NCBI GenBank assembly: GCA_038128225.1
Contig: JAYPJF010000001.1
Coordinates: 2,155 to 66,154 of the forward strand
Source of the DNA: a bacterium
Lineage (GTDB): Bacteria > Patescibacteriota > Minisyncoccia > Phycocordibacterales > UBA2100
Length of the DNA: 64,000 bases
Direction: 5' to 3'
The position numbers and the translations under genes were made by a program. This document shows, one piece after another, positions 4,849 through 60,933 of the stretch. A model generated the notes under the pieces. That model did no database searches. It had not been told where the DNA came from and saw only the letters and a list, made by a program, of their open reading frames with translations. The stretch's first letter is position 1, and each line of letters opens with the position of its first letter.

Positions 4849-4850
4849 AG

Positions 4851-4924
4851 TGCTCGGGGTGAGACTCGAACTCACGACCCTTCGCTCTTCAGGCGAATGC
4901 TCTAACCAACTGAGCTACCCGAGC
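4851..4924 (-). tRNA. tRNA-Phe (anticodon GAA)
   Basis: Cloverleaf folded by eye: acceptor GCTCGGG/CCCGAGC, D-arm AGCTCAGTTGGTTAGAGC, anticodon loop CTGAAGA, T-arm GTGAG-TTCGAGT-CTCAC, discriminator A; CCA not encoded. Confidence 0.85.
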
Positions 4925-4926
4925 TT

Positions 4927-5259
4927 CTATTCACCAAGCGTACCCTCAGGAAGATACGCTTTGAGTCCGTCCAGAATACCAGAAAGATCAGAAATGGGAA
5001 TATTCACGTTAGCCCCCAAATCTTGCACCTGCTGCATAGATCCCTGTACCTGATTGAGGGTATTCATAGCCTGATTCAGGGTTGGAGCAAGGTATTGTAT
5101 GTAAAGCCAGAGTGGGATTACGATAAACGCAGCCCAAACGAGCAATTTAAACACTCCCCCAATAAACGCGTTGCGGCGCATCGCCTTCAACATGCGGTTA
5201 TTTTCTCGCGCCAGTTCGTATGTGCGCCGCAACCACTCCTCCTGAGTCGGTTCTTGCAT
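4927..5259 (-). CDS. hypothetical small membrane protein
   Basis: ORF 4927..5307 trimmed to Met17 (MQEPTQEEW...) so it does not overlap tRNA-Arg; one predicted TM helix; weak RBS. Confidence 0.4.
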   Translation of the reverse strand: MQEPTQEEWLRRTYELARENNRMLKAMRRNAFIGGVFKLLVWAAFIVIPLWLYIQYLAPTLNQAMNTLNQVQGSMQQVQDLGANVNIPISDLSGILDGLKAYLPEGTLGE

Positions 5260-5281
5260 GGGCAAAGTATACCATCTATAA

Positions 5282-5353
5282 GTGCCCCCGGCAGGAATCG
5301 AACCCACATTGAGCCCTTAGGACGGGCCAGTTCTATCCATTGAACTACAGGGG
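5282..5353 (-). tRNA. tRNA-Arg (anticodon CCT)
   Basis: Acceptor GCCCCTG/CGGGGGC, D-arm GTTC-AATGGATA-GAAC, anticodon loop GTCCTAA, T-arm GTGGG-TTCGATT-CCTGC, discriminator A. Confidence 0.7.
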
Positions 5354-5371
5354 CGTATCGAGACTCTAACA

Positions 5372-5399
5372 CAAAAGCCGCCCTCTCGGGCGGCTTTTG
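5372..5399. terminator. bidirectional rho-independent terminator between tRNA-Arg and glutaredoxin gene
   Basis: AAAA-GCCGCCC-TCTC-GGGCGGC-TTTT hairpin. Confidence 0.7.
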
Positions 5400-5411
5400 T
5401 GTGCGCACACA

Positions 5412-5645
5412 TTACAATCCCAGTTTTTGCTTCAATGCATCCTCATCAAAACCAACAATGATCTCATCTCCAATTACGATAACAGGCACCCCCATTTGAC
5501 CGCTCTTTTCGATCATTTCACTACGTTTCTCTAAGTCTGAAGCAACATCATGCTCAGTGTAAGAAACTTTATTTTCATTAAAAAACTCTTTTGCTGCATG
5601 ACAGAAATGACATGTTGGCGTGCTGTAGATCGTTACTTGAGGCAT
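5412..5645 (-). CDS. NrdH/glutaredoxin-like small redox protein
   Basis: CxxC active site (STPTCHFCHAAKEF) and glutaredoxin fold motifs (GVPVIVIGDEIIVGFD). Start moved to Met52 (MPQVTIY) because upstream ORF part runs into tRNA-Gly-related sequence. Confidence 0.75.
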   Translation of the reverse strand: MPQVTIYSTPTCHFCHAAKEFFNENKVSYTEHDVASDLEKRSEMIEKSGQMGVPVIVIGDEIIVGFDEDALKQKLGL

Positions 5646-5690
5646 ACGAAGATATATAAAATAATAATGCTTGCCAAGTATACACCATTT

Positions 5691-5709
5691 GTGCGGGATG
5701 CGGGAATCG
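5691..5709. repeat. 19-bp direct repeat of the 3-prime end of tRNA-Gly (copy 1; copy 2 = 5837..5855 inside/adjacent to the tRNA)
   Basis: gtgcgggatgcgggaatcg occurs identically at 5691 and 5837. Confidence 0.85.
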
Positions 5710-5837
5710 GTCACGAGTTTCGCTCTGCGAACCCTCGACCCCGCCTCAGCCCGGCTCGGGCTTCCGGCTTTCGATTCCCACCCTCCGTTACAAAACAACA
5801 GTCATCGTACGCTCACGCGTACTCTTCGTTTGTTTTG

Positions 5838-5908
5838 TGCGGGATGCGGGAATCGAACCCGCATCTGCTGCTTGGGAAGCAGCCATTCTACCACTAAACT
5901 AATCCCGC
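5838..5908 (-). tRNA. tRNA-Gly (anticodon CCC)
   Basis: Acceptor GCGGGAT/ATCCCGC, anticodon stem-loop GCTGC-TTCCCAA-GCAGC, T-arm GCGGG-TTCGATT-CCCGC, discriminator A. Confidence 0.85.
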
Positions 5909-23068: not shown

Positions 23069-23103
23069 GACCTCAGCATACCTCCGATAAAAAATACCTA
23101 GGG

Positions 23104-23190
23104 CGGAGAGGGAGGGATTCGAACCCTCGGTCCGGTTGCCCGGACACGTCCTTTCCAGGGACGCGCTTTAGACCACTCAGCCACCTCTCC
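23104..23190 (-). tRNA. tRNA-Ser (anticodon GGA), class II with long variable arm
   Basis: Acceptor GGAGAGG/CCTCTCC, anticodon stem-loop CGTCC-CTGGAAA-GGACG, variable arm TGTCCGGGCAACCGGAC, T-arm GAGGG-TTCGAAT-CCCTC, discriminator G. Confidence 0.85.
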
Positions 23191-23280
23191 GTGTTATGAG
23201 TTTATACCACCTAGAATGAAACGGTGCCAAAAAAGACCCCGCGCGCTTGCGCGGGGCCCTTCCGTCACAACCAATAGAGC

Positions 23281-51703: not shown

Positions 51704-52627
51704 TTATTTTGCGCTCTTTACTACTTGCTCCAACGTCGCAATATCAAATTTTTTCATTTTCAAAAATGCTTGCGTAAGACGATTGAGTGCCGCCTTGTCT
51801 GTTGTATGCATCCATGTATCCATTGCGCGAGGCACAATCTGCCATGAAACTCCGTATGCATCCTTAAGCCACCCGCACTGTTCTGCTTCCGGCACCGCAG
51901 ATAACTTTTCCCAATAGTAGTCAATTTCTTTTTGAGAATCGCATTTAACTACCAAAGAAACCGCTTCATTAAAAGCAAACGCGTGTTTTTGTGCACTGTC
52001 CATTGCCGCAAACTGTTGTTCGCCCAATGCAAAACCGCCGTGCTTGATAGTGCCTTCTCGTTCTGGTACCTCATCCGCACCATACCTAAGCTGATATGTT
52101 ATTTTTGACTGCGGAAAAACAGACGTGTACATGATCATCGCTTCCTCAGCTTTCCCGCTTACGTCTCCCACAAACATCAATGTTGGCACGATACGTTGCA
52201 CAACCGACTGCCCTCCCATATACATGATCTGCCACGAAAGACCGTACGCATCTTGAATCCACCCGTAACGCTCACTAAATGGATATGCTCCAATGTCCAT
52301 GAGCGGTGTTCCTCCTTGAATTAACTTTTGCCAAAGGGCATCAACATCTTCTTTGGTTTCGCACCCCACCAAAAATGAAATCGACGGGTTGAATTTGAAG
52401 TAAGGACCTGCGCTGATGAGCATGAATTCCTGCCCATACAACTGCATGGTGAGTATTTCGGCATCACCAGACGGAGTGCCCTCAAGAATCTGAGACCCCG
52501 TAATCACCGATTTACCACTCGAAGCGGCGTCCACAAACGTCTGAGTGTAAAACTCTGCTGCCTCTCGCGCTTGGGTGTCAAACCACAAGTGAGGGACAAT
52601 TTTTTGCATACTACTGTTTGTCGACAT
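51704..52627 (-). CDS. tandem PhnB-like/VOC (3-demethylubiquinone-9 3-methyltransferase-fold) protein
   Basis: Two repeats each starting VP(H/T)LWF/LMF... with glyoxalase-fold motifs. Confidence 0.65.
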   Translation of the reverse strand: MSTNSSMQKIVPHLWFDTQAREAAEFYTQTFVDAASSGKSVITGSQILEGTPSGDAEILTMQLYGQEFMLISAGPYFKFNPSISFLVGCETKEDVDALWQKLIQGGTPLMDIGAYPFSERYGWIQDAYGLSWQIMYMGGQSVVQRIVPTLMFVGDVSGKAEEAMIMYTSVFPQSKITYQLRYGADEVPEREGTIKHGGFALGEQQFAAMDSAQKHAFAFNEAVSLVVKCDSQKEIDYYWEKLSAVPEAEQCGWLKDAYGVSWQIVPRAMDTWMHTTDKAALNRLTQAFLKMKKFDIATLEQVVKSAK

Positions 52628-53042
52628 TCACCATCCAATTAACGCCAAATTTGTCGCGAACCATCCCAAAATATGCGCCCCAAAACATTTCTTGATACGG
52701 AAGCGTGACGGTTCCTCCATCGGCAAGCGCGTTAAGTAGTCGCTCACCTTCTTCTTTCGACTCTGGATGCAGTGACAAGCTTACATTGTCACCCATGGTG
52801 AGTGTCTGCCCCATCGAAGGCATCGCATCAGTGCCCATGAGCGTGTTTTCACCAACAGGCAACGAAACGTGCATAACTTTTTGAAGATCTTCTTCACTCA
52901 TTTGGTCTTTGTTGGGTAAGTCGGGTACATCTTTAAATCGCTGTATACCTCCTCTCTCATACTCACCTCCAAACACTGACTTATAGAACTCAAAAGCTTC
53001 TTCAGTCTGGCCCATAAAATTTAGATATGGATTCAGTTTCAT
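52611..53042 (-). CDS. PhnB-like/VOC family protein
   Basis: Start at MKLNPYLNFMG (Met44 of ORF); same fold as the neighbouring gene. Confidence 0.6.
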   Translation of the reverse strand: MKLNPYLNFMGQTEEAFEFYKSVFGGEYERGGIQRFKDVPDLPNKDQMSEEDLQKVMHVSLPVGENTLMGTDAMPSMGQTLTMGDNVSLSLHPESKEEGERLLNALADGGTVTLPYQEMFWGAYFGMVRDKFGVNWMVNVDKQ

Positions 53043-53064
53043 ACGAGTTGTTACTGCCCCCTGT

Positions 53065-53685
53065 TTATAATACCGCCCCATCAATACCCACTTGTCGTTT
53101 GTATTCCTCGATAACCTCAGGGTGTTGCCCTTCTTTGCATTCAGAAACAAACTTCGCAGCTGCAGCGCCATCAGGGAACGTCATGTACGCAAGCGCCCCT
53201 TCGCAAATAGTATTGATGTTCAATTTGGTACTCACATTTGGTGCCCCCGTACTTGTGCCGAGTATTCGCGTAACCGTGAATACTCCTTTCATGTCGTACT
53301 TTGCCCATTGATTAGAACTGAGCGCTTCTTTAATGACCACCGTACCCTCAGCGGTAATGTATTGGTCGTTCTCCAGCTGTGCGCGCTCTGTAGACGAAAG
53401 TTGAGCTGCGTCAACCGCGTAATATTCTCCGCCGTCGGTGCGTAGCCCAAAAGCACACTCTTCTGTTTGAGGACCGCTCTGATCTTTATGTGGCAAACAG
53501 GTAAATCTGCCCGCGAGCGTCACCGGACGCGGGGTGGGATCAAGATCAGTCGCCCCTGGCGTACCCGTACGCGTATCAGAATTTGTCTGTTGGGTCTGGG
53601 CCCATACCATATACCCTCCCCCGGCGAGGACAATAAGTAAAGCTACAACAACAAGTGGCGTGATGCGTGCATCCATACACCGCAT
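53065..53685 (-). CDS. hypothetical secreted protein
   Basis: N-terminal TM/signal (ITPLVVVALLIVLAGGGYMVWA); no family recognised. Confidence 0.45.
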   Translation of the reverse strand: MRCMDARITPLVVVALLIVLAGGGYMVWAQTQQTNSDTRTGTPGATDLDPTPRPVTLAGRFTCLPHKDQSGPQTEECAFGLRTDGGEYYAVDAAQLSSTERAQLENDQYITAEGTVVIKEALSSNQWAKYDMKGVFTVTRILGTSTGAPNVSTKLNINTICEGALAYMTFPDGAAAAKFVSECKEGQHPEVIEEYKRQVGIDGAVL

Positions 53686-53759
53686 TATACATCCTCATTC
53701 ATAGAGATAGGATGAAGTGCGGGGGCGCGTTGCATTACTTTTTTTGATACTATGCGGGT

Positions 53760-55226
53760 ATGCGTTTCGTTTTACTTTTTGCTATCACGGCAGCGTTCCT
53801 TGTGCCGGTTACCACCCACGCGGCGCGTTCACTTTATTTAGGAGTGTCGGGAAGTGATGTTACAGCATTACAACAAGCTCTCATCGCGGAGAGTTATTTG
53901 GCTTCTGGAAAAGCAACAGGTTACTTTGGCCCACTTACCGAAACAGCGGTTAAAAAATTTCAGTGTGACCGTGAAGTGGTGTGTAGCGGAGAACAAGGAT
54001 ACGGTGTATATGGCCCAGCAACGCAGGCACGCATGGCTTCAGTGCGCGCCGCTTCTGACAATCCTTCAAGTATTGCTACGGGAGTGTTAACTCCACCCGC
54101 GCGAGGGCCTTTTGAAACTTCCGGCTGGATCCCGTACTGGCGTTCGGCAACAGGCACTCGCGACGTAAGCCAACACCTCACGTCACTCACAAGCGTCATG
54201 CCTTTTGTGTACACTGTGCGAAGCGACGGAACAATTGTAGACAATGGAAAACTCTCTGAAGAACCGTGGGCAAGTTTTATTATGGAGGCAAAGAAAAACA
54301 AAGTGCGCGTTGTCCCCACGATTATGTGGGGCGACGGCGAAGCTATTCACCGTATTCTAAGCAACACACCATCACGCATCAAACTCGAAGACGACATTGC
54401 CGCGCTCGTGAAGCAACACAACTTTGACGGAATCGATATAGACTTCGAGGCGAAAAAACATAAGACAATCTCTTACTTCTCGACATTCCTAAAAGGTCTT
54501 TACCAAAGAATGGGAAACAAGTGGGTATACTGCACTATTGAGGCACGTATGCCATTGGAGAATCGCTACAGCCCCGGTGCAACAATTCCACCTGACGCCA
54601 CTGACTTCGCAAATGATTACGTCGAAATGAACAAGTACTGCGATCGTATCGAGATCATGGCGTACGACCAAGGAACGATCGACGTGCGTCTTAACGCGGC
54701 GCGCAATGCGCCATACGCTCCTACAGCAGACCCTGCATGGGTTGAATCTCTTGTGACGCTCGCGGCACAAACTATCGAACGCAATAAAATCATCGTTGGT
54801 ATTCCTACGTACGGTTATGAATATAAAGTGACGCCACTTTCAGACGGAAGCTATCAGTACAAAGTGCTCTGGCCCTTCAACCCAGGATACGCTCTTGATA
54901 TCGCACAAAAACTCGGCATCACCCCAACGCGCACCAGCGCAAATGAAATCGGTTTCAGCTATGACCCTGACCGCCTTGCAACGCTTGCGCCAACGGGCAG
55001 CGACTCAACACAAACCCAGCAAGTGATCCCCTCATCTTCGGTTGTACACAACGCAGGAACTACGAGCGCAATCCAAAATCTCAAACCATTCAATTATATT
55101 TCGTGGAGTGACGCGACTGCAATTAAAGATAAAGTAGATATTGCACGGCGCCTTGGTGTACGCGGCGTTGCAGTATTTAAGTTTGACGGCAGCGGCGACC
55201 CGCTTGTATGGGACGTGTTGAAATAG
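53760..55226 (+). CDS. secreted glycoside hydrolase family 18 (chitinase-like) with N-terminal peptidoglycan-binding domain
   Basis: Signal peptide, PG_binding_1-like (GVSGSDVTALQQALIAESYLASGKATGYFGPLTETAVKKFQ), GH18 catalytic DGIDIDFE. Confidence 0.8.
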   Translation: MRFVLLFAITAAFLVPVTTHAARSLYLGVSGSDVTALQQALIAESYLASGKATGYFGPLTETAVKKFQCDREVVCSGEQGYGVYGPATQARMASVRAASDNPSSIATGVLTPPARGPFETSGWIPYWRSATGTRDVSQHLTSLTSVMPFVYTVRSDGTIVDNGKLSEEPWASFIMEAKKNKVRVVPTIMWGDGEAIHRILSNTPSRIKLEDDIAALVKQHNFDGIDIDFEAKKHKTISYFSTFLKGLYQRMGNKWVYCTIEARMPLENRYSPGATIPPDATDFANDYVEMNKYCDRIEIMAYDQGTIDVRLNAARNAPYAPTADPAWVESLVTLAAQTIERNKIIVGIPTYGYEYKVTPLSDGSYQYKVLWPFNPGYALDIAQKLGITPTRTSANEIGFSYDPDRLATLAPTGSDSTQTQQVIPSSSVVHNAGTTSAIQNLKPFNYISWSDATAIKDKVDIARRLGVRGVAVFKFDGSGDPLVWDVLK

Positions 55227-55298: not shown

Positions 55299-55688
55299 TC
55301 ACTTGAGGCGTACCAATATGCCCTTTCGCTTGACGATATTTTTGTAATCCCACTGAATCTTTTTTGATTTTTTAAGCCATCGTTTGAGATCCTTCACTCG
55401 TATTTCTTCAGGGTCCGTGTACCGTACTTCCGCAGCCTTAAAACTTCCTTCAGGCTCCAGACTCTTCTCTTCAAACGACTGCCCGCTCCAGAACAAAAGC
55501 TGAATATCATTTTTGCGCTTCGCGTAGCCAACAACTGGGTTTCCATCCAAAAACCAGACGGCAGTTCTATGCCACATTTTACTTTCGGCCTTAGGTAACC
55601 CTGCATCAATCTCCTTCGCCAAACAAGCGACAATTCTCTTATCCTTACCGGCAAGCGCTGTGTTATATGCCCGTATATCTTTGTGCAT
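55299..55688 (-). CDS. DUF1801 (YdeI/YdhG-like) protein
   Basis: WHRTAVWFLDGNPVVGYAKRKNDIQLLFWSGQSF matches DUF1801 core. Confidence 0.65.
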   Translation of the reverse strand: MHKDIRAYNTALAGKDKRIVACLAKEIDAGLPKAESKMWHRTAVWFLDGNPVVGYAKRKNDIQLLFWSGQSFEEKSLEPEGSFKAAEVRYTDPEEIRVKDLKRWLKKSKKIQWDYKNIVKRKGILVRLK

Positions 55689-55850
55689 ACGGATAACTAT
55701 ATCAAAACCTACTGGAACGTAGGTCAGTCATTCAAAATCCTACAAGCCAGAAAAAAGCGTGGTCAAGCGGTGTTCACTGGTCGTTCAGAAAATCATGCTC
55801 TAATTCGTTACTTCGCGAGAGAAACGAAACTCGGCGGCGAAGCGTCCTTC

Positions 55851-57728
55851 ATGAAAAAACTCCTCACAACCCCATCGCTGCTTCTCGTCACACTCCTGGT
55901 GGTTGCGCCAGCTGCATCACTAAGAGCGGCAACGAATACACAAACGAGTCCTGCGACAACAAGCGCCACCCAAAGCGACAACGCTCGTGGGCGAGTGCGC
56001 GCAAATGTAGAATCAACACAGACACCCGAAACCGAACGCACAAAAATTCAGTGGCAAGGCGCAAAAAAAATTGCACCAAGCCTTAACACCACCCCAAAAC
56101 AAGTAGAACCGGGTGCACCCACAGTGCGCACTGCGGCCCTTTCGGGAAATCTAATTCCAAACCCTTCCGTAGAAGCAGCTGGATCTGGCGGGTTACCCGC
56201 ATCATGGAAGAAAGGAGGCTATGGTTCCAATACTCGCACGCTTACTTACCCGGTCACTGGCTCGTCGGGAAGTGGGATTCGCGTGCAGGTTTCAAATTAT
56301 CAAGCTGGTGACGCAAAATGGTATTTCACTCACATTCCCATTCACGCAGGCACAGCATATCGCTTTTCTGATCTCTACCAATCAAGCGTTCCGTCAATTG
56401 TCACCGCGCAATTTCAACTCGCGAATGGGTCCTATGTATACAAGGACATTGCCTCGCTCGCGCCGGCTGCGTCATTCGCACCAATGACAGTCGAATTTGT
56501 GGCGCCATCTAATGCGGTAGCGCTCACCATATTCCACCTCATTAAGAGCAACGGTACATTGACCACTGATGATTACGATCTCCGAGAAGTCACACAAGGA
56601 GGTGGCGCCAATTATGTCCCAAACGGCACGCTCGAAACAGGGAGCGCGACCCCTGACTCATGGAGGCAGGGTCGCTGGGGGCAGAACACAACCACTTTTT
56701 CCTATCCAGTAACCGGCTCGGGTGGCGGCAAGGCAGCACGCGTTACCCTCACCAACAAAGTTACCGGTGATGCAAAATGGTTTTTCAATCCGATAGCACT
56801 CTCCCCGGGCACATATACTTTCCAAGATGAATACACCGCAAGTATTTCATCACACGTTACCGTGCAGATACAACACACAAACGGTACGGTTACCTATCAA
56901 GATATCGCTCATCCACCTGCTTCTCCTTCGTGGTCGAGCGCTGTTGCAAGCTTTACCGTTCCGCAAACCGCGACGCTCGTTACCATCTTCCACCTCATTA
57001 ACCAAAATGGAACACTCACTATCGACAACATGTCGATTACAGGAGGGAGTGCGCGCCCAGGAATTTTTCAAACCGGTGCGGTAACGCTCCGTTTCGATGA
57101 TAACTGGGACTCACAATACACGCGCGGGTTCCCTAAATTGAATAGCCGAGGTCTTAAAGGCGTACTATACGTGGTCTCTCGGCAGATCGATGAGCTTGGG
57201 TTCCCAGGATATATGACACGCGCGCAAATTGAAGAAGTATACAATCAGGGGCACGAGATTGGTGCACACACTCGAACACACCGTGATCTCGCCTCACTTT
57301 CGTATACCGAGCAGCAAAATGAAGTGGCGGGTTCGAGACAAGATCTTCTTGGGTGGGATGTGGGTACTGTTGATTCCTTTGCATACCCTTTTGGTTCGTA
57401 CACCACGCAAACACTCCAGGTGGTGGCCGACGCAAATTTCGAAAGCGCCGCATCATCAAACGGCGGGCTCGTTACCCCAACTTCTGACCCCTATCAGCTC
57501 GAGCGCCGTGGCCTTGAAAACACAACCGCTTTCGAACAAGCGCGGCAATGGATCGACGAAGCGATCGCGAGTAAGAATTGGCTCATACTTACTATCCATG
57601 ACATACAACCTTCGTGCGCAGATCGCTATTGTGTCTCTATGGCCGTGTTCAACCAAATTGTTGATTACCTCGCCGACCAAAACACTCCTGTCGTGACGGT
57701 CAAACAGGCATTTGATTCGCTGGAGTAG
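55851..57728 (+). CDS. secreted polysaccharide deacetylase (CE4/NodB) with two tandem CBM4_9-like carbohydrate-binding repeats
   Basis: Signal peptide MKKLLTTPSLLLVTLLVVAPAASLRA. Two ~150-aa repeats (…NPSVEAAGSGGLPASWKKGGYG… / …NGTLETGSATPDSWRQGRWG…). C-terminal CE4 motifs (TLRFDDNWDSQY, HEIGAHTRTH). Start set at Met57 of the ORF. Confidence 0.7.
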   Translation: MKKLLTTPSLLLVTLLVVAPAASLRAATNTQTSPATTSATQSDNARGRVRANVESTQTPETERTKIQWQGAKKIAPSLNTTPKQVEPGAPTVRTAALSGNLIPNPSVEAAGSGGLPASWKKGGYGSNTRTLTYPVTGSSGSGIRVQVSNYQAGDAKWYFTHIPIHAGTAYRFSDLYQSSVPSIVTAQFQLANGSYVYKDIASLAPAASFAPMTVEFVAPSNAVALTIFHLIKSNGTLTTDDYDLREVTQGGGANYVPNGTLETGSATPDSWRQGRWGQNTTTFSYPVTGSGGGKAARVTLTNKVTGDAKWFFNPIALSPGTYTFQDEYTASISSHVTVQIQHTNGTVTYQDIAHPPASPSWSSAVASFTVPQTATLVTIFHLINQNGTLTIDNMSITGGSARPGIFQTGAVTLRFDDNWDSQYTRGFPKLNSRGLKGVLYVVSRQIDELGFPGYMTRAQIEEVYNQGHEIGAHTRTHRDLASLSYTEQQNEVAGSRQDLLGWDVGTVDSFAYPFGSYTTQTLQVVADANFESAASSNGGLVTPTSDPYQLERRGLENTTAFEQARQWIDEAIASKNWLILTIHDIQPSCADRYCVSMAVFNQIVDYLADQNTPVVTVKQAFDSLE

Positions 57729-57737
57729 AGAAATTAT

Positions 57738-57890
57738 TTTCTTAAAAAATCAGCGCGCAGCGAAAGTAGGCCGAGGGCGAGAAACAACGCTGCTTCAATC
57801 CAGTTATTTCTCTGAATCGCTTCAACAAGCGCAATACCAAAGAACAGAACAAAGACCGTTATGTTCGCGTATGAGATATTTTTCATGTTC
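57738..57890 (-). CDS. unlisted 50-aa two-TM small protein
   Basis: ATG immediately follows the stop of the upstream aroK-like fragment; hydrophobic MKNISYANITVFVLFFGIALVEAIQRNNWIEAALFLALGLLSLRADFLRK. Confidence 0.3.
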
Positions 57891-58148
57891 TTACTCTATC
57901 ATTTCAACGCTCCTCGGAATGATTAAAATTGCGATTTCCTGTGCCAATTGCTCGGGAGATTTATTGTTAGCATCTATGACGAAATCTGCATGCTTCATAT
58001 AAAGATTTTCTCGTTCCGAATATAAGTCCTCAAAGCTTTTACTCTTTAAACCGACAATACCACGAGTGCTCGCTTCAATTCGTGTTTTTAGGGCTTTAGG
58101 ATCGACTGCAAGATACAGGACGATTGAAATATCCTTGAGGGTTTTCAT
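57891..58148 (-). pseudogene. aroK: shikimate kinase-like C-terminal fragment lacking the P-loop N-terminus
   Basis: IVLYLAVDPKALKTRIE...ADFVIDANNKSPEQLAQEIAILI resembles the C-terminal half of AroK-type kinases. The upstream part of the ORF runs into tRNA-Gln and no Walker A is present. Confidence 0.4.
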
Positions 58149-58220
58149 TGCCCAAACTGGCTGCCGGACTTGGATTCGAACCAAGATAAACAGATCCAGA
58201 GTCTGTTGTCCTACCATTAG
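58147..58220 (-). tRNA. tRNA-Gln (anticodon CTG), CCA encoded
   Basis: Acceptor TGCCGGA/TCCGGCA, anticodon stem-loop ACAGA-CTCTGGA-TCTGT, T-arm CTTGG-TTCGAAT-CCAAG, discriminator G plus CCA. Confidence 0.8.
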
Positions 58221-58278
58221 ACGATCCGGCAATGGCGTGATTTTATCAAAAACCCGATGTATTTGCTACACTCCGGCC

Positions 58279-58947
58279 ATGGCTCGCTATCGGAGATACA
58301 AACGAGGACACAATGGAAATGACGTATTCTTGTTTCTTGCAGCACTGGTGGTTATTGGCGTTCTTGCGTATGTTTTCATAAGCAAAGCAGAGTCGATACT
58401 AATTGCGAGCACCGCTATTTCTTTTTTTGTAATTGCAGGGTTTTATATCGGACACCCGATTGTGAAATTTCTGAGTAAGAAAAGTTATGAGCATATACGT
58501 AAAGTTCGCAAAGACTGGAGAGAAATCAAGGAGATTGAAAAAACGAGGAGATTCTATACCGTACACCAACTAGTACAACTCGACCCGATTGTGTTCGAAC
58601 GGCATATGGCTCAAGTGTATCGTGCACTTGGATATACTGTTGAAATTACTCCACCGCAAAAAGACAAAGGCATCGACCTGATCCTTCACAAACACGGAAT
58701 TACTTGTGCGGTGCAAGTAAAACGCTACACGCGAAATAATGTAGGAGCTCCGGAGATACAGGCGTTCTATGGTGCGTACGCCCGCCGGTATGACAAGGGG
58801 CTATTTGTTACAACTTCTGACTTTACACAGGAAGCACGCCTGTATGCGAAAGAAAATGAAGTCATGCTTACTAATGGTACAGATTTAGGAGAACTTGAAA
58901 AAGAGGCTTTTGATAACAAATCTTCAACTAGTCGCATCCTTCATTAG
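58279..58947 (+). CDS. membrane-anchored Mrr-like restriction endonuclease-domain protein
   Basis: Two N-terminal TM helices, then Mrr_cat-like core (FERHMAQVYRALGYTVEITPPQKDKGIDLILHKHGITCAVQVKRY...GLFVTTSDFTQEA); start at Met72 of ORF. Confidence 0.6.
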   Translation: MARYRRYKRGHNGNDVFLFLAALVVIGVLAYVFISKAESILIASTAISFFVIAGFYIGHPIVKFLSKKSYEHIRKVRKDWREIKEIEKTRRFYTVHQLVQLDPIVFERHMAQVYRALGYTVEITPPQKDKGIDLILHKHGITCAVQVKRYTRNNVGAPEIQAFYGAYARRYDKGLFVTTSDFTQEARLYAKENEVMLTNGTDLGELEKEAFDNKSSTSRILH

Positions 58948-59454
58948 CTCACTGAAGTGTTTTTGTATTTTTTCGACTTTGGGCGCCACCACGATCTGAC
59001 AATACGGTGCGTTTTTATTGTTCGCGTAATACTCTTGATGATACTCTTCGGCAGGATAAAAAGCTTCGAGTTTTTCGATGCGCGTTACCGCCTCCACCCC
59101 TTCTTTTGCGAATTCTGTCAAAGAGTTCTCCGCATCGCTTCGCTGCGCTTCAGTCGTGTACAAAATGAGTGAGCGGTATTGAGTTCCCACATCAGCACCT
59201 TGTTTGTTTAGCGTCGTCGGATCGTGCGAAGCAAAAAAGACCGCGAGCAGATCACGATAACTGATTATCGATGGATCAAATTCGACCTTAATGACTTCTG
59301 CATGCCCGGTGCGGCCGCTCGATACTTGTTCGTAATTTGGGTCTTCCTTTTCTCCTCCTGCATATCCCGAAACCACACTCGTTACTCCCTTAAGCATTCT
59401 AAACACCGCCTCAGTGCACCAGAAGCATCCGCCACCAAATACAGCAATTTCCAT
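58924..59454 (-). CDS. msrA: peptide methionine (S)-S-oxide reductase MsrA
   Basis: MEIAVFGGGCFWCTEAVF active-site motif. Confidence 0.9.
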   Translation of the reverse strand: MEIAVFGGGCFWCTEAVFRMLKGVTSVVSGYAGGEKEDPNYEQVSSGRTGHAEVIKVEFDPSIISYRDLLAVFFASHDPTTLNKQGADVGTQYRSLILYTTEAQRSDAENSLTEFAKEGVEAVTRIEKLEAFYPAEEYHQEYYANNKNAPYCQIVVAPKVEKIQKHFSELMKDATS

Positions 59455-59471: not shown

Positions 59472-60422
59472 CTATTCAGACTTCAAACATGTACGCCGAT
59501 CTCGTCCGAGCGAGAACACATGCTCCCGCACTGCCACAACCCCCTGGGTATCGAATGTTACCGAAACACCAAGGCCTGTGCGCACCGCATCGTCCCAGTA
59601 CTGATCAAAAATAAAATTACCGAGCGAATAGTAAATTCGCGCCCCGTGGTACTCTTCCATTTCCTGAATAACGTGTGGGTGCGAGCCGATCACGATCACC
59701 GCGCCTGCATCTACAAATGAGCGTGCGAGCTCCCTCACACGCTGAGGCGGTGGCACATATTCGTCTCCCCAATGGGCATACACGATAGGCACGCGCCCGG
59801 ATTCTTTTTCTACACGCACTTGTGCCACCGTGTGGTCAGTCTTGTCGCTCGTCCAGTCACTCCAGTTTATAAAAGAGAGCGGCGTGTCGTTAATCGTCAT
59901 CCGCGCAACTCGATCACTTTCTTGGGCGTCAGGATCACCAAAGTGGCGCACTCGAGCACTCTCGAGCCACTGCTTCGTCTGCACAAGACCATCTCTTCCG
60001 AAATTCATGATGTGATTGTTGCCAATCGAGACAAGCGAAACATTGTTTCGTTTGAGTAAGGCAGCGGTCGATGTCGGAAATGTGAAAGTGTAGTTTTCAG
60101 GCGAACCGACAACACTCCCAACGCTTTTTGATGCGTACGACGTAATAGGGCCTTCCAAATTCCCGACCACCAAATCTACCGTGCCGAAAAGATCACGGAT
60201 GCAGGAAAAAATATACTCTTCTCCTTTTTCTTCGATTGTTGTGCGGATACTTCGGTCAAACATCATGTCACCCACAAACAGTACCGCCGCTTCTTTTTTG
60301 GAGACCTGTGCAGGAGCGGCGAAAAAAATAAAATCATCAAGTATCACAGGCGGGAAAAGAGCAGACACGACAAGCACGAACGCAAAGAAAAAAACTAACG
60401 TTCCACTAGTGCGGTTATTCAT
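59472..60422 (-). CDS. CapA/PGA_cap family metallophosphatase (poly-gamma-glutamate capsule synthesis protein-like), secreted
   Basis: Signal/TM, VGDMMFDR and LVVGNLEGPITS motifs. Confidence 0.7.
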   Translation of the reverse strand: MNNRTSGTLVFFFAFVLVVSALFPPVILDDFIFFAAPAQVSKKEAAVLFVGDMMFDRSIRTTIEEKGEEYIFSCIRDLFGTVDLVVGNLEGPITSYASKSVGSVVGSPENYTFTFPTSTAALLKRNNVSLVSIGNNHIMNFGRDGLVQTKQWLESARVRHFGDPDAQESDRVARMTINDTPLSFINWSDWTSDKTDHTVAQVRVEKESGRVPIVYAHWGDEYVPPPQRVRELARSFVDAGAVIVIGSHPHVIQEMEEYHGARIYYSLGNFIFDQYWDDAVRTGLGVSVTFDTQGVVAVREHVFSLGRDRRTCLKSE

Positions 60423-60933
60423 CCTCTTTCAGTGCCTCTTTAATGCCGACGAGTCCTTGTTTGTTTTTAACCGCGAGAAAGAGCCGCCGAGCAGTATCAA
60501 GAATCACGGGCAACTCGAGGTAATCAATAAGTATCGCAACCCACGCAAGCCATGCCGGCAATACGGTTTCGTGCGTGTGTGCGCCGGTGAAAGTGTCCAC
60601 CACAAATTCATCGGTAATCCAAAACATGTGAAGCCACTGCGAGTGTAGAAGTGCGAGCATGACAACTGCGTGCCATTTCTCTCCCCTACGCCACGCGTCG
60701 ATATACACGAGAGATATGGTGAGAATCGCTGGAATCTCTGTGTAATCAATGAGAATAATGATGATTTGCCAAATTCCTTGGAGATCAAAAATTCCTTCGC
60801 CTAAAAGCCTTGTGGCAATTACATCGCCCCCGAGCCAGGTAAGATGTCCGAGTTGCAAAAGAAAAAGCCCGAGCGCAACCGAGACATTGAGCACATAGTT
60901 TCGTTCATACCATTTCCAAAACCCAGAAAGCAT
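60415..60933 (-). CDS. hypothetical polytopic membrane protein
   Basis: 4-5 predicted TM helices; no family recognised. Confidence 0.45.
   Translation of the reverse strand: MLSGFWKWYERNYVLNVSVALGLFLLQLGHLTWLGGDVIATRLLGEGIFDLQGIWQIIIILIDYTEIPAILTISLVYIDAWRRGEKWHAVVMLALLHSQWLHMFWITDEFVVDTFTGAHTHETVLPAWLAWVAILIDYLELPVILDTARRLFLAVKNKQGLVGIKEALKEDE

Follow-up and report, generated by a model that had tools for sequence, protein, structure and literature searches.

A probable kinase pseudogene at a polymorphic tRNA-Gln 3′ end beside a predicted membrane-anchored Mrr_cat nuclease in a Saccharibacteria-type bacterium

Introduction

The locus described here raises the question of how a kinase gene comes to begin, without its N-terminal half, directly behind the 3′ end of a tRNA gene. 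It lies in a 64,000-nt stretch of a patescibacterial genome (contig JAYPJF010000001.1, positions 2,155 to 66,154; the whole stretch is called the window), in which an intact tRNA-Gln(CTG) gene is followed by the C-terminal part of a shikimate kinase (SK)-like gene and preceded by a gene for an Mrr-like nuclease. A preliminary description, made from the letters of the window, attributed this arrangement to a past insertion event at the tRNA and linked the event to the Mrr-like gene. Comparison with independent assemblies of the same organism indicates that recombination at this tRNA is still going on in the population, on the side of the kinase remnant and away from the nuclease gene.

These assemblies are Logan assemblies found by exact-protein look-ups in four sequencing runs (DRR685533, DRR685536, DRR404984, and SRR26337528), and in every region of overlap their contigs agree with the window at 100% identity. 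A contig end is weak evidence by itself, above all within a tRNA, where assembly graphs become tangled, and such ends were treated accordingly. The tblastn, tRNA, and repeat searches covered the whole window, while Pfam families and integrases were surveyed among the open reading frames (ORFs) between 37.5 and 64 kb. Relatives of the kinase fragment come from two sources. One is HMMER, run exhaustively against 1.84 billion representative proteins, with 295 matches, of which 149 are listed besides the query; the other is a synteny scan with one genome per species that yielded 38 loci with full-length relatives.

The Kinase Gene Retains Its C-Terminal Half

According to Pfam SKI, the NCBIfam model NF040667, and tblastn, the remnant occupies 57891-58148 on the minus strand and consists of 85 codons and a stop, corresponding to the C-terminal half of a ~170-aa SK-fold kinase. 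The match to Pfam SKI (PF01202; E 8.5e-08, 32.9 bits against a cutoff of 22.1) spans profile positions 80-155 of 159 only. The LID motif RGIVGL is present, and the Walker A P-loop (GxxGxGKS/T) is absent from the 85-aa ORF as well as from the 113-aa ORF (57891-58232) in which the preliminary description placed the kinase fragment. That longer frame is mechanical: it opens on a TTG, and its first 28 codons (58149-58232, minus strand) are the tRNA read as codons, a spurious extension that carries no kinase homology. The description was thus right about a C-terminal half lacking Walker A, and its coordinates narrow to the 85 codons behind the tRNA. The public gene call P0001 (108 aa, Pfam SKI) likewise runs through the tRNA; exact look-ups found neither this call nor a guessed 90-aa edge-truncated product on record.

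Full-length relatives show what is missing. Of the 149 listed matches, 99 reach at least 130 aa (in most cases 160-175 aa), and residues ~88-165 of these proteins are the part with which the fragment aligns. Their Walker A motif lies at residues ~10-20, and in the alignment the N-terminal half holds the P-loop IGMSGxGKS and a PGGSVVYS motif. The other 50 listed matches are short and start at many positions within conserved motifs (MVSPGGS..., MIATGGS..., MVYRARAM...); Walker A occurs in one of these 50. To judge from their sequences, the short relatives look like truncated calls at contig ends or in pseudogenes and not like a stand-alone family. About a dozen short database proteins do start at the same methionine as the remnant, because this methionine is nearly invariant in the family. 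On the scattered starts and the single Walker A we reject a natural family of ~85 aa, and the view of the kinase ORF as a truncated gene is upheld.

The lost half is not found elsewhere in the window. When 12 relatives (8 full-length, 4 partial) were compared with the 64 kb by tblastn, they matched the C-terminal half only, beginning at 58151, and residues 1-88 had no match in the window. A split gene, or an N-terminal half at another place in the window, is thereby ruled out. The first ATG of the remnant lies 9 nt past the CCA of the tRNA. In the 9-nt spacer GTTTGGGCA (58149-58157, minus strand), GCA is the conserved alanine codon of the kinase, the origin of GTTTGG is unassigned, and this leader contains no clear ribosome-binding site. 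Since homology to the relatives starts at 58151 (GCA ATG), the truncation is at most 7 nt from the tRNA 3′ end. Near the end of the remnant (57897-57934, minus strand), the +1 frame reads SFRGALK*, similar both to QFQGASKW*, the C-terminus of P0017, which is the closest full-length relative, and to SFRGASKW in the alternative flank described below; weakly, this suggests that the remnant may also be frameshifted near its 3′ end. From the reading frame and its alignments, we judge the 85-codon ORF to be a pseudogene.

An Intact tRNA-Gln With Two Alternative 3′ Junctions

The preliminary description had located the tRNA-Gln(CTG) gene at 58147-58220. The gene is present and intact, and ARAGORN places it 11 nt away from there, at 58158-58231 on the minus strand, with an encoded CCA at 58158-58160. 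The match to Rfam RF00005 is full length (58161-58231; 63.4 bits against a gathering score of 29), the acceptor stem has a perfect 7 bp from U1-A72 to A7-U66, and the discriminator is G73. The other four tRNA genes of the window (Phe, Arg, Gly, and Ser; 4850-5908, 23101-23191) lack an encoded CCA. A near-identical tRNA-Gln is found in an unrelated low-GC groundwater lineage (L042), the sole locus found among metagenome contexts sharing the tRNA. It differs from that of the window by one compensatory T-stem pair, encodes CCA, and has the same end, GGCAGCCA, after which the two sequences diverge. Hence, CAGCCA is the native end of the tRNA, and an origin of the junction CCA as non-tRNA sequence is ruled out.

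At this end the assemblies differ. A 35,246-bp contig from DRR685533 (L043/L045) is identical to the window from 58163 to 45299, that is, over 12,865 nt with zero mismatches (100.000%). Beyond 58163 it continues into 186 nt, here called Y, that are related neither to the tRNA nor to any other part of the window. The switch falls at 58163|58164, between C71 (58163) and G70 (58164) and six bases before the tRNA 3′ end. The core shared by both arrangements is CAGCCA (58158-58163, minus strand), which comprises C71, A72, G73, and CCA of the tRNA and is attached to the kinase remnant in both. A contig from DRR404984 (L044) covers the window from 58191 to 54436 and bridges the tRNA-kinase junction in the window configuration. 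The tRNA 3′ end thus has a presence/absence polymorphism, with an X-Z allele (window, L044) and a Y-Z allele (L043/L045). It is a solid fact that right-hand flanks without a single difference are joined on the left in two alternative ways, and this bears out recombination at the tRNA, where the preliminary description had suggested a past insertion event; the link to the Mrr-like gene fails, as shown below.

The odds of finding CAGCCA at the Y-Z junction by chance are roughly 1 in 4096. The tRNA end and the remnant were therefore joined before the two alleles became different. Compared with DRR685533, the window has the look of an unoccupied site. As to attachment (att) repeats, the Y-Z junction holds the 6-nt tRNA-end remnant CAGCCA, and the window holds no repeat of the tRNA 3′ end even when 3 mismatches in 25 nt are allowed. 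The tRNA 3′ half matches no viral contig. The far end of L043/L045 should lie, by arithmetic, at ~23104 of the window, 3 nt from the 3′ end of tRNA-Ser(GGA) (23101-23191). This contig would then begin and end at the 3′ ends of tRNAs, either because graphs generically break at tRNAs or because a second tRNA flank is variable.

The alternative flank carries kinase sequence of its own. In diverged form, the final 38 nt of the remnant coding region recur as nucleotides 86-123 of Y (30/38 identical, in the same codon register), 330 nt upstream of the remnant tail that this copy resembles; in 200 shuffles, none exceeded 24 matches. This 38-nt DNA repeat is the sole significant match between Y and the kinase, as the peptides VYSIES and FRGASKW are not significant alone. 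At profile level Y is rejected as a kinase C-terminus, with negative scores from the hidden Markov model of the kinase family. The order in the Y-Z allele is therefore a decayed kinase tail, 63 nt, CAGCCA, GTTTGGGCA, and the N-terminally truncated kinase.

Kinase Family and Intact Relatives

The preliminary description called the kinase AroK-like. The best NCBIfam model is instead NF040667, which the fragment matches at 4.2e-14 (52.8 bits, positions 86-159 of 163) and full-length relatives at ~1e-44; P0017 and its fellow full-length relative P0018 reach 152 bits, below the cutoff of 197 bits. With the AroK/AroL models, whose cutoffs are 161-217, the fragment reaches 17-25 bits and its full-length relatives reach 60-120 bits, so that none passes. 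NF040667 thus scores well above every AroK/AroL model for the fragment and for its full-length relatives alike. Its name in NCBIfam is homoserine kinase "hom_kin_desulfo," and we take it to stand for the SK-related homoserine kinase of Desulfovibrio, e.g., DvMF_0971. The activity of DvMF_0971 from Desulfovibrio vulgaris Miyazaki F was shown by complementation of an E. coli thrB mutant (PMC5764234).

The SKI fold is common to DvMF_0971 and the fragment, and the family is spread through anaerobes including Desulfovibrionaceae. "AroK-like" is therefore right at the level of the fold and, going by the model scores, probably wrong for function. The subfamily appears to be related to the SK-like homoserine kinase and is a candidate for this assignment at scores below cutoff. 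A "shikimate kinase" label would suggest aromatic amino-acid metabolism, whereas the family is nearer to the SK-like homoserine kinase model. Unlike DvMF_0971, the copy in the window retains the C-terminal half only and cannot be an enzyme.

In its relatives the kinase is not tied to the tRNA. At none of the 38 loci with full-length relatives does a tRNA-Gln adjoin the kinase, which rules out a conserved tRNA-Gln-kinase synteny. The tRNA accordingly does not replace the kinase N-terminus in a syntenic sense, and an intact tRNA-adjoining arrangement, which would have spoken against truncation, is seen at none of these loci. The closest full-length kinases are encoded in metagenome-assembled genomes of Candidatus Saccharibacteria (L004, 53% identity; L005, 46%), and neither locus has a small transmembrane ORF downstream of the kinase. 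In L004 (1220-3253), the intact SK-like kinase is divergently paired with a peptidoglycan (PG)-binding/GH18 gene that is ~65% identical to 53760-55226 of the window. Since it adjoins GH18 there, the kinase belongs to this variable cell-wall neighborhood in relatives. It sits on the other side of GH18 than the remnant does in the window, and the equivalent slot of the window (within 53065-55226) holds a 206-aa secreted protein unrelated to the kinase. The GH18 neighborhood is a variable accessory region; the window also contains the housekeeping genes pyrG, ftsEX, prfB, and BipA. Their presence, taken with the similarity to L004, points to a genome of Saccharibacteria type.

The Neighboring Mrr_cat Nuclease

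On the 5′ side of the tRNA, a plus-strand gene (58279-58947) encodes the 222-aa protein that the preliminary description recognized as having two transmembrane helices and an Mrr_cat-type fold. This recognition is well borne out. Pfam Mrr_cat (PF04471) matches with E 7.6e-29 (100.6 bits against a cutoff of 21), and hydropathy shows a basic N-terminus, MARYRRYKR, followed by two hydrophobic segments. The AlphaFold2 model (mean predicted local distance difference test score, pLDDT, 81.7) has helices at 13-35 and 37-88, whose hydrophobic portions (~16-62) are predicted to make up two membrane segments; the alpha/beta domain that follows has pLDDT >90. The PD-(D/E)xK domain extends from ~100 to 205. 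In an alignment of 14 relatives, E107, D133, Q146, and K148 (Q-x-K) are invariant, the D...QxK pattern aligns with the LlaBIII nuclease domain by sequence match to the Protein Data Bank entry, and the best solved structures found by Foldseek are AF1548, MspJI, and AspBHI (E 1e-5 to 1e-6). No Pfam domain precedes residue 100, neither an Mrr_N winged helix nor a modification-reading domain. The model and the hydropathy profile suggest that the protein is probably a membrane-tethered type IV-like PD-(D/E)xK nuclease, with a cytoplasmic catalytic domain predicted because the N-terminus is positive and two membrane spans follow.

The PD-(D/E)xK Mrr_cat domain with D...QxK is common to this protein, E. 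coli Mrr, MspJI, AspBHI, and the LlaBIII nuclease domain. In contrast to the type IV enzymes, the protein of the window is a 222-aa single-domain protein in which two membrane helices replace the DNA- or modification-reading domain. Its nearest relatives are few (31-33% identity) and share the layout. Plasmid proteins of Bacillus, Priestia, and Paenibacillus annotated as "restriction endonuclease" in RefSeq have the same hydrophobic N-terminus plus Mrr_cat in ~175-220 aa, with alignments covering up to 94% of the query at 27-31% identity; those copies are plasmid-borne, whereas the one in the window is chromosomal and lies between msrA and the tRNA. Plasmids of these genera commonly carry such proteins. 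Small membrane-anchored Mrr_cat proteins are a widespread, uncharacterized kind, of which the protein of the window is a member.

The preliminary description also considered a defense role. PADLOC gives matches at the level of the nuclease domain only (PDC-S02; mREase_IV, the type IV methyl-directed restriction endonuclease; the ZorD nuclease), between query residues 59-219 and the C-terminal parts of longer profiles; it finds neither a full-length system match nor partner genes, and membership in a defense system is not supported. The closest relative, P0003, sits at L002 (5822-9801) in a run of MazE antitoxin, TM-Mrr_cat, NmeDI_C, HNH, and SNase genes, with a DUF1801 gene and an AcrVA2-like gene nearby, possibly a defense cluster. 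Another relative sits among ordinary genes, and none of the relatives adjoins a tRNA.

Nothing in its position connects the nuclease gene with the event at the tRNA 3′ end. It lies on the 5′ side of the tRNA, with remnant and polymorphic junction on the 3′ side, and is present at 100% identity in all four samples. Downstream it converges with msrA (58924-59454, minus strand; Pfam PMSR, 3.1e-62), the 3′ ends of the two genes overlapping by 24 nt (58924-58947), and msrA opens a housekeeping block that continues with PGA_cap, pyrG, ftsX, and ftsE. Together with relatives that are not tRNA-linked, these flanks speak against the proposed tie between the Mrr-like gene and the event.

Origin of the Truncation

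We consider it reasonably probable that the remnant is the dead 3′ part of a ~170-aa SK-fold kinase whose 5′ half was lost by recombination ending at the tRNA-Gln 3′ end. DNA segments with SK-like kinase cargo would enter and leave the tRNA-Gln site; at one such passage the kinase 5′ half with its P-loop would have been lost, with the recombination endpoint at the 3′ end of tRNA-Gln(CTG). The window would then represent the empty allele of a site at the very 3′ end of the tRNA, and the kinase remnant, perhaps the small 50-aa ORF behind it as well, would be left over from a previous round. Recombination that recurs at one site is expected to leave just such a pattern, with a partial kinase copy on either side of a single core derived from the tRNA. 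The route may be integrase-type recombination or recombination between short direct repeats; an integrase-type mechanism is possible because tyrosine recombinase overlap regions are 6-8 bp. We only infer which way the event went and that the segment now missing was integrative.

Displaced gene fragments and island scars are known from integration sites at tRNA 3′ ends, examples being the icd′ pseudo-copy that e14/phage 21 left behind and the remnants of islands found in tandem at tRNA genes. The locus resembles island scars at tRNA 3′ ends in that a truncated gene abuts an intact tRNA end, the junction lies within the last tRNA bases, occupancy differs between otherwise identical strains, and the alternative flank holds a second decayed gene tail. 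It is unlike them in that no integrase or full att repeat is visible, the demonstrable identity block is 6 nt, the variable segment is recovered over 186 nt, and the remnant of the window is on the chromosomal side in both alleles.

Several observations weigh against recombination by a mobile segment. The demonstrable identity at the junction is 6 nt only, which is short for a classical tRNA att site, and the tRNA 3′ end is not repeated elsewhere in the window. Between 37.5 and 64 kb, none of the ORFs encodes an integrase, a transposase, or a phage protein. The recovered extent of Y is 186 nt only; Y matches no viral contig, and its two long open frames have no relatives in a 5.8-billion-protein database, PHROGs, or Pfam. 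A close relative with the ancestral arrangement was not found among the loci compared. Furthermore, the tRNA-side contigs all break inside the tRNA and do so at differing positions, namely exactly at 58164 in SRR26337528 (L001), at 58198 in DRR685533 and DRR404984 (L048 and L050), and at 58206 in DRR685536 (L049); these breaks partly reflect the behavior of assembly graphs at tRNAs. The guanine-plus-cytosine (GC) content drops to 0.40-0.44 across 57600-59200 from ~0.50 on either side, a dip that is only modest and counts against a classical island.

The main rival is a plain microhomology-mediated deletion in the course of genome reduction, with the alternative allele as an undeleted or differently rearranged state and no mobile element or recombinase involved. 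The missing integrase and the mere 6 nt in common at the breakpoint fit such a deletion, as does the lineage, a reduced Saccharibacteria-type genome in which gene decay by deletion is common; likewise, kinase debris in Y fits local decaying DNA better than a foreign element. However, the kinase of the Y-Z allele is already truncated at the same nucleotide, and two independent events sharing one endpoint within 12 nt are not predicted by random deletion. Moreover, the tRNA is kept perfectly up to its CCA, and a microhomology of the CAGCC type between tRNA end and kinase codons, tried as a candidate, is absent at the truncation point in the DNA of 20 relatives. We therefore regard deletion as unlikely, if a serious competitor to recombination at the tRNA end. 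That an island with tRNA-Gln and the Mrr-like gene as a defense nuclease was inserted into an intact kinase and destroyed its N-terminal half is much harder to uphold. The GC dip spans the right region, the Mrr-like protein has few close relatives and defense-type domain matches, and P0003 sits in a nuclease-rich cluster, yet no kinase N-terminal half lies beyond the Mrr-like gene or elsewhere in the window, no flanking repeats surround the tRNA and Mrr-like region, and the Mrr-like gene overlaps msrA, after which core housekeeping genes follow. The four samples show no variation in the Mrr-like gene or in the 5′ part of the tRNA, whereas the variable side is the tRNA 3′ side, and the Mrr relatives are not linked to tRNAs; this insertion is very unlikely.

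The 85-aa ORF might, in contrast, be no debris at all and encode a functional mini-protein, a LID/C-terminal module co-transcribed with the tRNA and the 50-aa ORF. Its 85 open codons run from a nearly invariant methionine at which about a dozen database proteins also begin, it is called in independent assemblies, and the 50-aa ORF follows only 4 nt on. Such a protein would nevertheless be without the P-loop and the substrate-binding half and would have no convincing ribosome-binding site in its leader; the scattered starts and the near-absence of Walker A mark the short relatives as truncated calls, and the +1 frame SFRGALK* gives a weak hint of a frameshift, so that we hold a mini-protein to be highly improbable. 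Finally, a chimeric join at the tRNA repeat could have produced the window junction or the Y-Z junction during assembly, as tRNAs are classic tangles in the graphs of metagenome assemblies and, in the four samples, the contigs on the tRNA side all end within the tRNA. Yet L044, from another sample and another assembler, reproduces the window junction with k-mers spanning it, the Y-Z junction lies inside a 35-kb contig and needs junction-spanning reads, and the homology of Y to the local kinase tail is unexpected of a random chimera. An artifact is thus hardly credible. Recombination ending at the tRNA 3′ end remains the preferred account, and the locus is best seen as a pseudogene scar of an ordinary kind, left at a tRNA 3′-end hotspot, to which the neighboring membrane-anchored Mrr_cat nuclease is unrelated.

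Other Features of the Neighborhood

The 47-nt intergenic region between the tRNA-Gln 5′ end and the start codon of the Mrr-like gene (58232-58278) is divergent and the sole space for the promoters of both genes; a consensus scan found no promoter-like site in it. Behind the remnant, the 50-aa ORF (57734-57886, minus strand) has two hydrophobic segments, as the preliminary description stated. It starts 4 nt past the stop codon of the remnant and out of frame, not on the next codon. The ORF is called as a gene in independent assemblies and has no Pfam, PHROG, or PADLOC family and no copy in the fetched loci outside this organism; on its sequence we treat it as a putative gene.

Further out, a large secreted polysaccharide deacetylase is encoded at 55683-57728 (plus strand; 681-aa ORF, called as 652 aa elsewhere). 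It contains an internal duplication, 56526-56563 versus 56982-57019, with 76% identity at a spacing of 456 nt, which suggests tandem ~150-aa N-terminal domains of unassigned family. Two mechanical minus-strand ORFs, 52611-53171 (glyoxalase/3-dmu-9_3-mt-like) and 53065-53685 (no family), overlap by 107 nt; independent calls for them are shorter (156 aa and 203 aa), yet an overlap of 17 nt persists. The stretch 60415-60933 (minus strand), located between the PGA_cap gene and pyrG, encodes 172 aa with three hydrophobic segments; this protein matches no Pfam family and is conserved in all four samples.

Implications

The public 108-aa call that runs through the tRNA gene should be annotated as a pseudogene. 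Existing ideas are not overturned by this locus. It shows, to the nucleotide, structural variation in progress at the 3′ end of a tRNA in a population of Saccharibacteria type. A more far-reaching possibility, which we put forward as doubtful, is that CAGCCA of tRNA-Gln is the crossover of an undescribed integrative element of Saccharibacteria with ~6 bp of identity, SK-like kinase cargo, and stacked 3′ remnants, and that the Mrr_cat nuclease separately stands sentinel at the inner membrane against DNA entering an organism that obtains nucleotides by DNA uptake. To our knowledge, the mobile elements of Saccharibacteria are poorly known, and the missing segment behind Y could reveal one.

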